A stretch of DNA of 64,000 bases from a virus (IMGVR_UViG_3300031972_002446:32001-96000), one strand, 5' to 3'. Shown: positions 39,526 to 47,036, counted from the stretch's first letter. Notes: generated from the sequence alone by a model not told the origin. Made by a program: numbers and translations.

Positions 39526-39547
39526 TGGCACAGTCCGTGCGGCCTGG
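39526..39547 (+). promoter_or_regulatory. Sigma54-like -24/-12 box fused to GC-box
   Basis: TGGCAC-AGTCC-GTGC-GGCCTGG. Confidence 0.6.
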
Positions 39548-39565
39548 TTTTGTGTTTTTTTTACA

Positions 39566-39793
39566 TCAGACCGGATACCCTTCTTTTCTTAGAATATCTT
39601 TGGTGGGAACAACGAAAGTGAGTTGGTCGGCGTTTGTATAATCTCTCATTCCACGCTGGTCAATATACATATATTCGTCTAATACATCATGTTCATTCAT
39701 TTCGTGTATAACTGTTCTACAGGCGTCATAGGGTTGTTGACTTGTTGAATAAATTAATTGTAGTGTTCCGGTCGAAATATAATACTTACTCAT
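39566..39793 (-). CDS. Hypothetical protein
   Basis: ATGA-coupled to the gp88-like gene; GAGG RBS. Confidence 0.65.
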   Translation of the reverse strand: MSKYYISTGTLQLIYSTSQQPYDACRTVIHEMNEHDVLDEYMYIDQRGMRDYTNADQLTFVVPTKDILRKEGYPV

Positions 39794-40566
39794 GCTGCTA
39801 CCTCCTCTTTTTTTAGAATTTTTAGTGCGTTTGCTGCTTCGCTACCCTTGGGCTGGACTCCATGAATTAGTAGGGCAAAATCCTGATTTGCTTTGGTTGG
39901 ATCGCAGGCATGGCTGTCGTCATTATCAATCTCCAAACCTAAATCGGCGGCTTCTTGTTTTGAGAATACTACCTTTGCAGATCGTAAACCGTGTTCTGCG
40001 ATTAGATGATCATCACGACCACCGTACGATGCAGTCAGAACCAGATTAGTCGGTACAAGGTCACGACTACGAACCCAATAGGTCAGAGACTTTGTGTAGG
40101 CGTAAAATAAAACATCGGGGTTACGCTCTGCGACTTTGATCCATGCCATGAAATACTTGTGACTAAACATATCACCAGACACATGAATACGAATGATTCG
40201 AGCATCCTTGGGTAACGCTGCACACAATCCGTCTGCCATAGCGTCACTTGTCTCCAGACTATGTATAGCGTCGTGATTGCGTTTGCGACTTTTGTAGGTG
40301 TTGGTGAATAATACTTCTTGACTAGCAGAGAAGCAACGGAATTTGGTATGAGGGCCGTCCTTGATTCTGCGACTACCGTCTGCCTGCTCTTCGGCTTGAG
40401 ACTTGCAGTTATAGGCGAAAGGACAGTCTACTCCCGATAATATATCGAAAGAATAAACTTTGGCAGTAGACCGTCCTATCTTATGACCCAACCACCGCTT
40501 GAGCACAGTTGTTGCGAGTTTGTATAGTTTCTTGAGTTTTGTATTCGCTGTTGAGAATTTTAGCAT
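39790..40566 (-). CDS. GP88-like (radical-SAM-related) phage protein
   Basis: N.KL, CP.A..C, C.SA, RIHVSGD, FYAYTK and NLVLTAS motifs. Confidence 0.8.
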   Translation of the reverse strand: MLKFSTANTKLKKLYKLATTVLKRWLGHKIGRSTAKVYSFDILSGVDCPFAYNCKSQAEEQADGSRRIKDGPHTKFRCFSASQEVLFTNTYKSRKRNHDAIHSLETSDAMADGLCAALPKDARIIRIHVSGDMFSHKYFMAWIKVAERNPDVLFYAYTKSLTYWVRSRDLVPTNLVLTASYGGRDDHLIAEHGLRSAKVVFSKQEAADLGLEIDNDDSHACDPTKANQDFALLIHGVQPKGSEAANALKILKKEEVAA

Positions 40567-40653
40567 GTCGTTGTCTCCTGTGGTTATCTCTCAAGTATAT
40601 CATAGTATCGTCTGGTGTCAACTAAAAACTATAGAAAAAATAAAAATAATTTT

Positions 40654-40674
40654 TGGCATATCGCGTGCGGGCTG
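40654..40674 (+). promoter_or_regulatory. Sigma54-like box plus GC-box (32-bp identity with 41588-41619)
   Basis: TGGCAT-ATCGC-GTGC-GGGCTG. Confidence 0.65.
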
Positions 40675-40769
40675 AAATTTAATATTTTTGTGTTGATTCC
40701 GGCCTGCTCCTAAATCATTGCAGAGCAACAACTTAGGGCAGGTACCGGAACACACCACGAAGAGAGTCG

Positions 40770-41153
40770 TTATGCTACTGCCCAGCCAAACAATGGCTTC
40801 CGGCAATTCTTTACACGCTCACAGTAGAACTGTCTAATAGCACCATCATGAGTTTCACATGTTACAATGTGATGAGTACGCTTGAAGTCTGGATCGTTCC
40901 TACGATAAGTAGAAGATCGATTCATCTTCTCGATAGCACTGTTAGAAAACTTATGAGGCTCTTCGACAACCTTAGCCAATACTCGCTTAGGATCACCATG
41001 CAGTGGCTGCATGTATTCAAAGTTATAAACTTCACCGACCTTAGCATCGCAGAGACTAGCCTGACGACCACCGTAAACAGAGTAAACTCCGAACAAAACA
41101 AGTGCTACAGCGATTCCACCAATGACACTTGCCATCAAAATCAAATTATCCAT
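40770..41153 (-). CDS. Membrane-anchored hypothetical protein
   Basis: N-terminal TM; GGAGG RBS. Confidence 0.7.
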   Translation of the reverse strand: MDNLILMASVIGGIAVALVLFGVYSVYGGRQASLCDAKVGEVYNFEYMQPLHGDPKRVLAKVVEEPHKFSNSAIEKMNRSSTYRRNDPDFKRTHHIVTCETHDGAIRQFYCERVKNCRKPLFGWAVA

Positions 41154-41213
41154 TTTTTTTCCTCCAAAGTGTGAAAAAACCTAAAACCATTTTACCATAT
41201 GCTCAACACCATG

Positions 41214-41516
41214 TCAAGCATAAACTCTCATACCTTCCTGAAAAGGTGTTCCGTGACTAGTGAACCATTCCCAATTTTTCTGGAATACGGACACTGGACT
41301 ATATTTGTTGATTCGTTTTTTTGTGGTTGGACTTTTCCATCCACCATGCCTCAGTGTAGCAGAATCATCATCATGAATCACTACAATATCTGTACTGAAA
41401 TGTTGAATCGCTACGCTACCACTCGGTAAAATTCTTGCTGTAGTATTGTTTCCCACCTTGCGTTGCATTCTGTTATTCTTGCCCAAAACTAATTGTGTTG
41501 CTTCTGCGTGTGTCAT
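41214..41516 (-). CDS. Conserved early phage protein (GGW.S.TTK.RIN)
   Basis: Motif family common in phage early regions; AGGAG RBS. Confidence 0.75.
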   Translation of the reverse strand: MTHAEATQLVLGKNNRMQRKVGNNTTARILPSGSVAIQHFSTDIVVIHDDDSATLRHGGWKSPTTKKRINKYSPVSVFQKNWEWFTSHGTPFQEGMRVYA

Positions 41517-41598
41517 AAGTATTTTCTCCTTACTTGTTATATCGTCAATTATACAGGCTCAACTTTAGTTGTCAATACAAAAAAAAGAAAATAATTTT

Positions 41599-41619
41599 TG
41601 GCATATCGCGTGCGGGCTG
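41599..41619 (+). promoter_or_regulatory. Sigma54-like box plus GC-box
   Basis: TGGCAT-ATCGC-GTGC-GGGCTG. Confidence 0.65.
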
Positions 41620-41630
41620 GTTTGATGATT

Positions 41631-45158: not shown

Positions 45159-45323
45159 TCATCGACTAACCTCGTATTCTTCTGTGATAATTTCTGTATG
45201 CTCTCCACACGCTGGGCAGATGTCTGAGCAGTTGTCTGAAACATACTCACCACAGCAATCTGTGATATACATTGTAGTTACTTGGAATAATTCTTCAACT
45301 TGTTTTTTATCAAATGTTTTCAT
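45159..45323 (-). CDS. Small Zn-finger protein, paralog of 46727-46914
   Basis: TDCCGEYVSDNCSDICPACGEH versus SDCCGASVHSDADLCPTCLEH; promoter at 45361-45401. Confidence 0.7.
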   Translation of the reverse strand: MKTFDKKQVEELFQVTTMYITDCCGEYVSDNCSDICPACGEHTEIITEEYEVSR

Positions 45324-45425
45324 TTTCTTTTCTTTCTAATCTGTTACTTGTTATATCCTAAGTATATATACTATATCGGAATTTGTCAAGCATTAATTTA
45401 GAAATATTTTTATTATTTTTCTGTG

Positions 45426-45472
45426 TGCAAATATCATGCCAAAAATTTTTTTTGTTTGGCACATCGTTTGCT
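45426..45472. promoter_or_regulatory. Back-to-back consensus sigma54 boxes
   Basis: Minus strand TGGCAT-GATAT-TTGCA (45426-45441) and plus strand TGGCAC-ATCGT-TTGCT (45457-45472). Confidence 0.75.
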
Positions 45473-46000
45473 GTAAGTTTTTTATCGTAACGCGGCCCGG
45501 CTCGTTACGTGATTTTAATAAGCCTCTTCGGGTGTCCAATATATTTCTTCAAACAAGTCCACACCAGTTACGTCACACCAATCAAGAGGGTGTGAGTTGT
45601 TCTCGTCACAAGGCTCAACACAACCTTCCGATTCCAGGGCAGCAATTAAAAGTTGCATATCGATGTTAAACATATCAGTTCTCCGTGGTAAGTGTTATAT
45701 GTCAAGTATATACATACTATATTTATTGTCAAGTACAATCTTTATTTTTTTTCGTAGATTGTATCAAGATAAATTTCATCAGCAGTCATAACATATCCGT
45801 ACTCACAATTAGGGGTATACACCCCAAAATATACCTTACCATTATCATACCCTTCGAACCCTACCATGATTCCAAATATAGTGTAGATTGTCAACATTGT
45901 TTTTCTCCGTGGGTTATTCTTTCCTATACTTTATATATCGACAACATACAGTAGAAACTTAACAGAAATTTTATTTATTTATTTATTATTTTTTTAACCA

Positions 46001-46024
46001 AACCCGGCGGCACTCTTTGTGCCA
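46001..46024 (-). promoter_or_regulatory. Sigma54-like box plus GC-box
   Basis: Minus strand TGGCAC-AAAGA-GTGC-CGCCGGGTT. Confidence 0.6.
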
Positions 46025-46046
46025 AAAATCTAATAATCTACCATAT

Positions 46047-46370
46047 TTATTCTTCTATAAAGGGTGATTCCTCACGATCCTGTAAAAATTCATACTGACT
46101 CTTTAATGCCTCGACACGTTCAGCACTTCCCGGTTTACCTATAGGTTTAGACATATGATCCACACCACCAACTACGCGAGGGTTTGCCTTTGTATGTCGT
46201 TTTCTGAAATGTTTACGACTAAACTTGACTACCTTTTCACCATCAATAGTACCTCCATCAGCAGCAGACTTCTGACAAGGGATAGCAATTCCCTGCCAAA
46301 TATTTTCACATTCGTCCCAAGCGTCTGATAAGATTTGATACTTTTTCATTAATTTTTCTGTACTACTCAT
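46047..46370 (-). CDS. Hypothetical protein
   Basis: 107 aa; PGS.ERVE.L..QY motif. Confidence 0.65.
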   Translation of the reverse strand: MSSTEKLMKKYQILSDAWDECENIWQGIAIPCQKSAADGGTIDGEKVVKFSRKHFRKRHTKANPRVVGGVDHMSKPIGKPGSAERVEALKSQYEFLQDREESPFIEE

Positions 46371-46599
46371 TATAAAAATTCCTACAGTAAAGTATATTCT
46401 GTGCTACTCTAATTCCCTCGTAATCTTCTGGTCGACATTCTTGACAAGCCACCAAATAGCATTGTAATTTAGGCGTGTCAAATTTGTCAAGTACTTTGTA
46501 AAGGTACTCATATAAAGATGTTGATTTGTATTCATTCATTTTTTGCATCATCCTCAAATATAGGGTCGCCGTATTCATCGACTGGTATTCCGTCTTCAT
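46363..46599 (-). CDS. Hypothetical protein
   Basis: 78-aa ORF overlapping the next gene. Confidence 0.5.
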   Translation of the reverse strand: MKTEYQSMNTATLYLRMMQKMNEYKSTSLYEYLYKVLDKFDTPKLQCYLVACQECRPEDYEGIRVAQNILYCRNFYNE

Positions 46600-46726
46600 T
46601 CATAAATATATCACCATTTCGCAGACCGTCAATAGTGATTTCTAATTTTTCTTGCTCACTAAACATATAGCACCTTTTAATATTTTTTCAAAGTGTACCA
46701 AAATTTTTCCGTCTATGCAATCCGCT

Positions 46727-46914
46727 TTATGCGGCCCCGTAAAAATCGAGACCAGCCTGAAAGTGTACCGCTTCAGAATCATCATAATCGATTCTATCTT
46801 CGATAACTTCGCAATGCTCAAGGCACGTTGGGCAAAGATCGGCATCGGAGTGAACCGAAGCACCACAGCAATCAGAGGAGTAAACTATTTCGAAATTTTT
46901 TGAAGTGTTTAACA
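46727..46914 (-). CDS. Small Zn-finger protein (start MLNTS within the 46727-47032 ORF; start coordinate approximate)
   Basis: SDCCG...CPTCLEHC; AAGGA RBS. Confidence 0.65.
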
Positions 46915-47020
46915 TTTTTTTTATCCTTTGTTTAATGTTCTTTTTAGTATATCGGAATTTTAACATACTAAACTTTAATTTGCAAGAAGAATTTTTTTCC
47001 TCTTTATAGTTTATATATAG

Positions 47021-47036
47021 TGCAAGTATCATGCCA
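47021..47036 (-). promoter_or_regulatory. Consensus sigma54 box
   Basis: TGGCAT-GATAC-TTGCA. Confidence 0.7.

Follow-up and report, generated by a model that had tools for sequence, protein, structure and literature searches.

Promoters read by the alternative sigma factor sigma-54 (RpoN) need a signal-activated ATPase to fire. The qrr promoters of the Vibrionaceae, which use sigma-54 together with LuxO or SypG, have the form TTGGCAC(G)-N4-TTGC(A/T), with GG and GC one helical turn apart. In E. coli the holoenzyme found at most sigma-54 sites is inactive (PMC4591121), and the non-canonical inactive sites detected there by chromatin immunoprecipitation sequencing (ChIP-seq; Bonocora et al. 2015) are conserved, lie antisense to or far from gene starts, and have no nearby activator site. 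According to citations in two papers, development of the P. aeruginosa phage YuA depends on host sigma-54 (PMC5053324; bioRxiv 10.1101/2023.10.13.562163). In T4-type phages, the PeSL cassettes place a repeated stem-loop and an early sigma-70 promoter at the flanks of small early open reading frames (ORFs) and are linked to module shuffling (PMC2839356, PMC4122927). The present analysis concerns eight short boxes in a stretch of 64,000 nucleotides (nt), bases 32001-96000 of the 165,940-bp IMG/VR virus record IMGVR_UViG_3300031972_002446, an uncultured marine phage. The whole stretch is called the window, and positions are counted within it unless stated otherwise. From sequence comparison we consider it rather probable that the eight boxes are sigma-54 (RpoN)-type -24/-12 elements that depend on host sigma-54 and an activator, and that they form a regulatory layer of the early regions in a clade of large uncultured marine phages.

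The window was scanned with the pattern WGGCAY-N5-KTGC, and dinucleotide-preserving shuffles (n=100) served as a control. Exactly eight matches were found, at 39526(+), 40654(+), 41599(+), 44374(-), 45427(-), 45457(+), 46010(-) and 47022(-). They lie within 7.5 kb, against 0.39 matches expected, and none of the 100 shuffles reached eight. When the T-initial form of the pattern was applied to the whole genome, the rest of it yielded one more match, which is intragenic (genome position 116886). A preliminary description of the window had listed the same eight sites, two of them displaced by one nucleotide (45426 for 45427 and 47021 for 47022). It had described them as intergenic with exact GG-N10-GC spacing, and both statements are true of all eight boxes. 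The division into three boxes with TTGC(A/T), at 45427(-), 45457(+) and 47022(-), and five in which GTGC runs into a GC block (GGGCTG, GGCCTGG or CGCCGGG) was likewise recovered. The boxes are part of an early-type region at 34-47 kb, which is composed of small minus-strand genes. As the early genes lie on the minus strand, four boxes are sense (47022, 46010, 45427 and 44374) and four antisense, which agrees with the earlier statement that half point against the genes. Nearly every early unit has a consensus sigma-70-type promoter (TTGACA-16/17-TATAMT), and such promoters were found 23-37 nt from six of the eight boxes.

A position matrix built solely from distant relatives (L069-L109; L-numbers denote related marine viral loci and G-numbers complete relatives) confirmed the enrichment and separated the boxes into two grades. 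The three TTGC boxes scored 21.5-24.8 bits, a range in which about 0.1 match is expected per genome. The five GTGC boxes scored 14.8-15.9 bits; with a threshold of 14 bits the expectation is about 1.15 matches per genome, whereas there were eight, every one of them in these 7.5 kb. The TTGC boxes are convincing individually and the GTGC boxes only as a cluster. The extended sigma-54 consensus YTGGCACGrNNNTTGCW, as quoted in PMC3352281, is matched by 45427, 45457 and 47022, and in part by the five GTGC boxes, which have G at -15 and G/C at -11. Between the boxes at 45427 and 47022, 17 of 18 nt are identical, yet the identity of the paralogous proteins encoded downstream is only 39%, which argues for selection on the box itself. 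The boxes at 40654 and 41599 are identical across 21 nt and are therefore regarded as paralogous copies.

Compared with YuA, the phage would be another virulent-type phage that uses host sigma-54 beside sigma-70 promoters without encoding sigma-54 itself. In the two papers that cite YuA, however, one sigma-54-like promoter is given, whereas here eight boxes are clustered in both orientations, with back-to-back pairs and, in relatives, enhancer boxes. No sequence relationship between YuA and this phage was found. Phage use of host sigma-54 is rare but known, YuA being the sole precedent that we found cited.

Relatives were retrieved with a 258-amino-acid early protein and with an alignment of a small cysteine-rich protein (DCCG...CPxC...EH), giving 86 loci on marine viral contigs. 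The motif was conserved among them: GGCAY-N5-KTGC occurred in about 130 unique contexts in 533 kb. In the complete relative G001, seven of eight sites lie at 2-16.5 kb, and in G005 five lie at 6.7-13.4 kb, which is the same early region. A reversed control pattern gave 0-2 matches per complete relative genome. The number of sites per relative varied from 1 to 8. Positions outside the search pattern followed the sigma-54 consensus as well, which supports the sigma-54 identity: T was present at -26 in 86-89% of sites and was common at -27/-28, -20 was G/A, -19 was mostly a purine and -11 was A/T, while the spacer was variable. Upstream of the 258-amino-acid gene the window has TGGCATATCGCGTGC, L017 TGGCACAGCCCGTGC and L021 TGGTACAGGTTTTGC, so that the GG-N10-GC frame is kept and the spacer changed. 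The same frame was found at another boundary in L018 and L023 (GGCACAGCATATGC). Two short blocks kept one helical turn apart across a free spacer are the signature expected of sigma-54.

The placement of the sense copies resembled that of promoters. Among unique sites of the whole family, 56 of 63 sense sites had a Shine-Dalgarno sequence and an ORF start in the next 160 nt, and in 37 of these 56 no sigma-70-like promoter lay in between. Distances from GC to the start codon clustered at 44-55 nt, so that the implied leader measures about 32-43 nt. Among the antisense sites, a Shine-Dalgarno sequence with an ORF start followed in only 9 of 66 cases. In the window, gene-driving placement holds for 47022, 45427, 44374 and 46010 and not for the four antisense boxes, after which no ORF begins. 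Upstream of the cysteine-rich gene, several arrangements were observed. The box is the sole recognisable promoter in L018, L023, L035, L039, L043, L052-L054, L060 and L064, and it is followed 35-37 nt downstream by a sigma-70 promoter in the window (both paralogues), L032-L034, L046 and L068. A derivative of the box without the TTGC block precedes a sigma-70 promoter in L036, L048, L059 and L061-L063, and a sigma-70 promoter occurs alone in L037, L040, L049, L050, L055, L065 and L066. The preliminary description had held that the boxes are not simply the promoters of these genes. This was only half right, since the sense copies behave like ordinary promoters and are, in many relatives, the only recognisable one for the same gene.

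Further support came from the upstream sequences of the relatives. In a 260-bp upstream alignment a conserved order of elements was seen: terminator-like hairpins, a triple array of the TTGCA-W3-TGCAA type, an ATAATGA(G/C)AAT block, an A-tract, the -24/-12 core and TATATATA. TTGCA-W3-TGCAA is the upstream activating sequence of the sigma-54 activator LuxO, and V. cholerae qrr1 has the identical 13-mer ttgcaaaatgcaa (PMC10328515). In V. fischeri, Pqrr1 carries a pair of such sites in the interval from -175 to -60, and SypG uses them too (PMC10162802). The qrr promoters are matched in the relatives by two or three such boxes about 95-135 bp upstream of the expected start and by an A/T-rich block before the core. 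About 22 relaxed boxes (TTGCA-N3-TGCAA) were found in 441 kb of unique loci, and nearly all of them begin 76-133 nt before the GG of a core in sense orientation, with preferred distances of 77-78, 96-97 and 108-109 nt. LuxO-type boxes were present in L018, L019, L023, L034, L035, L037, L039, L043, L050, L052, L064, L066, L093, L101, L106 and L108, and their placement is retained in distant relatives with diverged flanks (L066, L093, L101 and L108). Two or three boxes, which begin 77-133 nt before the GG, occur per promoter, for example at L018:5535-5579, L039:2839-2883 and L064:2821-2865, and one of them is identical to the V. cholerae qrr1 site. The core downstream of the LuxO-type boxes is often the sole visible promoter of the small cysteine-rich gene. 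As the boxes of a sigma-54 activator co-occur with the core at enhancer distance, they independently support the view that the core is read by sigma-54. In L101 LuxO-type boxes accompany a GTGC core, which suggests that GTGC is able to serve as a -12 element.

The likeness to qrr promoters has limits. Here the elements are on a lytic-type phage genome, and their outputs are a small cysteine-rich protein and short non-coding stretches instead of a Qrr RNA. No known RNA family, Qrr included, was matched in the early region of the window or in five relatives; the matches that Rfam gave were confined to tRNAs and a transfer-messenger RNA (tmRNA). Unlike in qrr promoters, half of the phage boxes point away from genes, several stand in tandem with a sigma-70 promoter or are fused to a GC block, and this phage has no LuxO-type box. 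At 47022, inverted repeats occupy the place of the relatives' LuxO-type boxes and are common to L032 and L068. The motif TCACA-N4-TGTGA was rejected as a general enhancer, as three matches in the window against 2.2 expected represent no enrichment.

Other readers of the boxes were considered. The phage encodes a sigma-70-family protein of 212 amino acids that comprises region 2 only (55749-56387, plus strand). Upstream of genes outside the early region a separate motif, GGTGTATAA, was 13-fold enriched (12 of 60 upstream regions), a distribution that makes it the probable middle or late promoter class of the phage itself. The phage sigma factor was rejected as the reader of the boxes on account of their 12-bp centre-to-centre geometry and of the distinct GGTGTATAA motif on non-early genes. 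TTGGCA was also rejected as a sigma-70 -35 element, since the spacing to any TATATA is 12-15 nt and thus too short. No single-subunit RNA polymerase was detected in the phage, but the control of this search likewise found nothing. A palindromic operator of the form GGCAC-N5-GTGCC fits at most two boxes, and the palindrome is not the conserved feature.

It is improbable, in our estimation, that the box is the site of another phage or host DNA-binding protein acting as upstream activator or operator of the adjacent sigma-70 promoters. Such a role would account for the constant 35-37 nt between box and -35 hexamer, which is kept though the intervening sequence has diverged, for the partly palindromic GGCAC-N5-GTGCC in two boxes and for the lack of an activator gene. 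However, the two halves differ and are asymmetric in nearly all copies, the sigma-54 consensus is matched at about 12 positions, and the box is also found where a sigma-70 promoter is absent, with the spacing to the start codon that a promoter would have. It co-occurs, moreover, with the binding boxes of a sigma-54 activator. Back-to-back pairs (12 unique in the family) have CC-to-GG gaps of 9-10, 17-18 or 31 nt, and this range from 9 to 31 nt fits monomeric, independent recognition and argues against one dimeric protein.

For the five GTGC boxes three roles are conceivable: promoters of weak antisense activity, docking sites that stay silent, or parts of mobile boundary cassettes in the course of decay. 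Antisense and GC-fused copies lie at the 3' boundary of early units, beside a conserved hairpin (40748-40699) or a GC block. Early gene order is shuffled between 38500-47500 of the window and L017-L024 (70-90% DNA identity), and the breakpoints fall at repeated promoter/boundary cassettes. In contigs of relatives, 41517 is joined to 44298 just downstream of homologous promoters, and loose ends or divergence occur exactly at 40654. The repetition of the cassettes, the shuffled gene order and the contig joints suggest that the boundary cassettes are mobile, in a manner resembling the PeSL cassettes. The 45427 cassette is about 90% identical in L017, where it stands before another gene. Blocks that consist of GC only (8-12 nt, CCRGSCCGCAY on the sense strand) were also noted at unit boundaries, at 39537-39547, 40665-40674, 41610-41620, 42700-42712, 43830-43840, 44368-44375, 46003-46013 and 45493-45502. 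L020 and L021, the two ends of IMGVR_UViG_3300021959_007960 (155 kb), each have the 258-amino-acid early gene near the end, with different upstream sequences. They represent two diverged copies or a strain-chimeric assembly and not an exact terminal repeat.

These observations bear on an explanation that we consider unlikely, though a real possibility, in which only the three TTGC boxes are sigma-54 promoters. The GTGC boxes would then be parts of boundary cassettes (GC block, hairpin and early promoter) that were spread by duplication and recombination, and their likeness to -24/-12 elements would be partly incidental. Their scores of about 15 bits, a level at which about one match per genome is expected, fit this explanation, as do the paralogy of 40654 and 41599, the shuffling and contig joints described above and the precedent of PeSL cassettes. 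A GC block with a GCAY end moreover persists without the -24 half in L018, L019 and L022; the counterpart of 39526 has lost the -24 half and retained the GC block in L018 and L022. For PeSL cassettes, however, no -24/-12 box or GC block has been described, nor is the phage studied here T4-like. In the window and close relatives, TGGCAY is retained at a distance of exactly N5 from TGC in about 14 GC-block sites whose spacers differ, and orthologues alternate between GTGC, ATGC and TTGC while GG-N10-GC remains constant. The orthologues of 41599 in L017, L022, L018 and L023 retain GG-N10-GC with different spacers, and the orthologue of 40654 is TGGCACAGCCCGTGCC in L017 and TGGTACAGGTTTTGC in L021, and is degenerate or lost in L019, L020 and L022. 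Clear sense-promoter contexts, in which TATATA and a gene follow the core, were seen for GTGC cores as well, and one such core is accompanied by LuxO-type boxes (L082, L091 and L101).

The preliminary description had proposed that the boxes hold sigma-54 holoenzyme in stable closed complexes, which would form an insulator or roadblock, soak up host sigma-54 like a sponge or provide a handle for DNA entry; we find this doubtful. The location of antisense and GC-fused copies exactly at the 3' ends of early units, beside hairpins, is in line with the proposal. The GC-rich stretch from -11 to -4 would tend to keep the complex closed, and inactive binding is a known property of the sigma-54 holoenzyme (PMC4591121). 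The four antisense boxes resemble the inactive sites of E. coli in being conserved, antisense or far from gene starts and without a nearby activator site. The E. coli sites are mostly intragenic, however, whereas the boxes here are intergenic, clustered and at the boundaries of transcription units. No roadblock effect was seen in E. coli at 85 genes with bound intragenic sites (PMC4591121). Five to eight sites per genome are very few for a sponge, the variation from 1 to 8 sites among relatives fits a dose-dependent sponge poorly, and orthologous sites are often lost.

Very improbable is the explanation that the motif acts as RNA, with GCAC and GTGC as the stem of a hairpin that is an intrinsic terminator or a processing site of early mRNAs. 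The boxes are situated just 3' of stop codons, and one weak terminator-like match exists at 39540-39528. When all eight boxes were folded, however, the stems were 4-5 bp, the fold z-scores ordinary and U-tracts absent. The TTGC boxes are unable to pair, and C/T at -21 and G/A/T at -15 vary without covariation on one strand. An intrinsic terminator with a GC-rich stem of at least 5-7 bp and a U-tract was lacking at the boxes; the exception is a separate hairpin at 45486-45519 (+), where a transcript begun at the 45457 core could terminate after about 40 nt.

Structured RNA may be produced from backward-facing cores in distant relatives. Directly downstream of such cores, two or three copies per phage of a conserved imperfect palindrome of about 85 nt were observed (L109:3796-3905(-), L089:3496-3605(-), L085:3560-3669(-), L101:914-1023(-) and others). 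Its arms are of the TAAGTC...GACTTA type, with CGTAAGTCGTTGC / GTAAGGGTTTACG and ACTTACG / CGTAAGT around a CGGCCGCG apex. With RNAalifold the promoter strand was predicted to form 17 pairs, including several G-U pairs, whereas no pairs were predicted for the opposite strand. Since the palindrome pairs only on the promoter strand, the modelling suggests a sigma-54-driven structured RNA, a candidate for a new small RNA family. The homologous hairpin in the lineage of the window shows another preference, its greater stability being on the mRNA strand (40699-40748; -38.9 kcal/mol on the sense strand against -28.8 kcal/mol on the other).

With regard to mechanism, host sigma-54 RNA polymerase would bind the boxes and a host enhancer-binding ATPase would start transcription. 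The activator would have to come from the host, since genes for sigma-54 and for an activator were both missing from the phage. The three TTGC boxes would act as promoters. Those at 47022(-) and 45427(-), 36-37 nt upstream of a sigma-70 -35 element, would add an activator-dependent input to the paralogous cysteine-rich genes, and 45457(+), which is the backward-facing member of a back-to-back pair, would yield no more than a short hairpin RNA. The five GTGC boxes are expected to be weaker; they probably bind holoenzyme poorly, stay closed or give weak antisense transcription. The proposed link between early transcription and the state of the host is retained as a tie to a host activator, whereas nitrogen or envelope stress as the signal is not, as the relatives point to an activator of the LuxO/SypG type. 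Taken from sequence, the sigma-54 identity assigned in the preliminary description is well supported by family-wide conservation, by the consensus at unconstrained positions, by promoter-like placement and by the enhancer boxes of relatives.

Several points weigh against this assignment. A LuxO-type box, perfect or relaxed, is absent from the 166-kb genome of this phage, and upstream inverted repeats were found at only one of the eight boxes (47022), the other seven having no obvious enhancer. A phage-encoded enhancer-binding protein, which the preliminary description had considered, was found neither in this phage nor in five complete relatives. The sole match to PF00158 (Sigma54_activat) was a RuvB protein of 301 amino acids, as a protein atlas confirmed, and a domain search of this phage gave no Sigma54_DBD. 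The GTGC boxes, at about 15 bits, deviate at -15 and -11, their GC block at -11 to -4 should hinder melting, and in some relatives the GC block occurs without the -24 half. The near-constant 35-37 nt to the sigma-70 -35 element could mean that the box is an upstream site for that promoter. The assignment presumes a host with rpoN and a matching activator. DNA of this phage occurs in seawater metagenome runs; metatranscriptome runs yielded just unstranded contigs without transcript ends, mostly of relatives 90-95% identical, which have no bearing on promoter activity.

The features of the region are compiled in Table 1. Cysteine-rich gene B matched neither Pfam nor PHROG. A consensus sigma-70 promoter lies 27 nt downstream of the 44374 box.

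Table 1. Boxes and neighbouring features of the early region (positions in the window)
Feature	Position	Strand	Remarks
Sigma-54-type core, high-scoring (TGGCATGATACTTGC, then A and TATATATA)	47022..47036	-	21.5 bits; sense; orthologues L032, L046, L068
Inverted repeats ATTCACA/TGTGAAT around TAACATGA/TCATGTTA, plus TCACATTATTGTGA	47095..47175	.	about 60-140 bp upstream of 47022; candidate enhancer
Sigma-70-like promoter TTGCAA-17-TAAAAT	46957..46985	-	36 nt downstream of 47022 core
Cysteine-rich gene B (DCCG...CPxC...EH, 62 amino acids)	46727..46915	-	downstream of tandem promoters
Sigma-54-type core, high-scoring (TGGCATGATATTTGC)	45427..45441	-	23.1 bits; sense; 37 nt upstream of sigma-70 -35
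Sigma-54-type core, high-scoring (TGGCACATCGTTTGC)	45457..45471	+	24.8 bits; antisense; back-to-back with 45427, gap 17 nt
7-bp hairpin CGTAACG/CGTTACG, GC-rich apex, then TGATTTTAAT (U-rich tail)	45486..45519	+	downstream of 45457
Sigma-70 promoter TTGACA-17-TATACT of cysteine-rich gene A	45361..45389	-	
Cysteine-rich gene A (54 amino acids)	45159..45323	-	paralogue of gene B
GTGC box, lower-scoring (TGGCACAAAGAGTGC+CGCCGGG)	46010..46024	-	15.9 bits; nearly palindromic; directly 3' of stop codon
GTGC box, lower-scoring (AGGCACAGGGAGTGC), fused to GCGGGCTG	44368..44388	-	15.4 bits; sense; orthologue L046
GTGC box, lower-scoring, fused to GGGCTGG	41599..41620	+	15.2 bits; antisense; between stop codon and next sigma-70 promoter
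GTGC box, lower-scoring, fused to GGGCTG	40654..40674	+	15.2 bits; antisense
GTGC box, lower-scoring, fused to GGCCTGG	39526..39547	+	14.8 bits; antisense
Conserved long hairpin, core CCTAAGTTGTTGC / GCAATGATTTAGG	40699..40748	-	3' end of upstream early gene; boundary cassette beside 40654

The genome gave some indications of affiliation and host. The terminase is about 25% identical to terminases of Bacillus and Microcystis siphophages. Matches of the terminase, the DNA polymerase and a 315-amino-acid early protein were all below 60% identity and belonged to phages of many hosts, and no near-identical DNA of the region and no cysteine-rich protein was matched in cultured phages. Elements similar to FliA/SigD promoters (TAAAGTTT-N11/12-GCCGATAA, or CCGATAT) interleave with sigma-70 hexamers at 42648-42700, 45960-46000, 46950-46990 and in most early promoters, and the gene starting at 45897 apparently has a sigma-28-like promoter alone. 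Strong Shine-Dalgarno sequences, TTGACA/TATAAT promoters and the FliA-like GCCGATAA elements in early promoters suggest a flagellated proteobacterium as host, and the combination of FliA/SigD-like elements with sigma-54 boxes suggests a flagellated host as well. At 19662-23952 (minus strand) a PSCyt1-DUF1549-DUF1553 protein (790 amino acids) and a DUF1501 protein (431 amino acids) are encoded; such a pair is typical of Planctomycetes and Verrucomicrobia, and the best genome matches of the DUF1501 gene, 48% identical, were in Planctomycetes. A complete one-piece tmRNA gene was found at 6532-6873 (minus strand; 113 bits against RF00023) with the predicted tag ADTSVLALAA, and three tRNA genes (Lys-UUU, Ile-UAU and Arg-UCU) at 35806-36927. 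After the consensus sigma-70 promoter at 39493-39466, about 400 nt without a convincing ORF extend up to the next promoter (39062-39466, minus strand) and possibly represent a non-coding RNA.

The array is new in its clustering in two orientations, its back-to-back pairs, its tandems with sigma-70 promoters, its conservation throughout a family of uncultured marine phages and the enhancers of quorum-sensing type that relatives carry. A wider interpretation is offered only tentatively. In this widespread clade of large aquatic phages, the enhancer-dependent promoters may read a host activator of the LuxO/SypG or another type, and thus the quorum or surface state at infection, and the backward sigma-54 sites at boundaries may drive short structured RNAs or hold insulating closed complexes. 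Sigma-54 promoters in the early region would make part of the takeover by a virulent-type phage conditional on the physiological or social state of the host, and the feature is common to dozens of uncultured marine phage contigs. The quorum-sensing activator boxes of the relatives would give a lytic phage a direct cis-acting route to sense the density signalling of its host. The boxes and the type of enhancer may provide host-range clues for uncultured phages, and with the back-to-back and boundary copies the effects of silent sigma-54 complexes could be tested in a natural setting.

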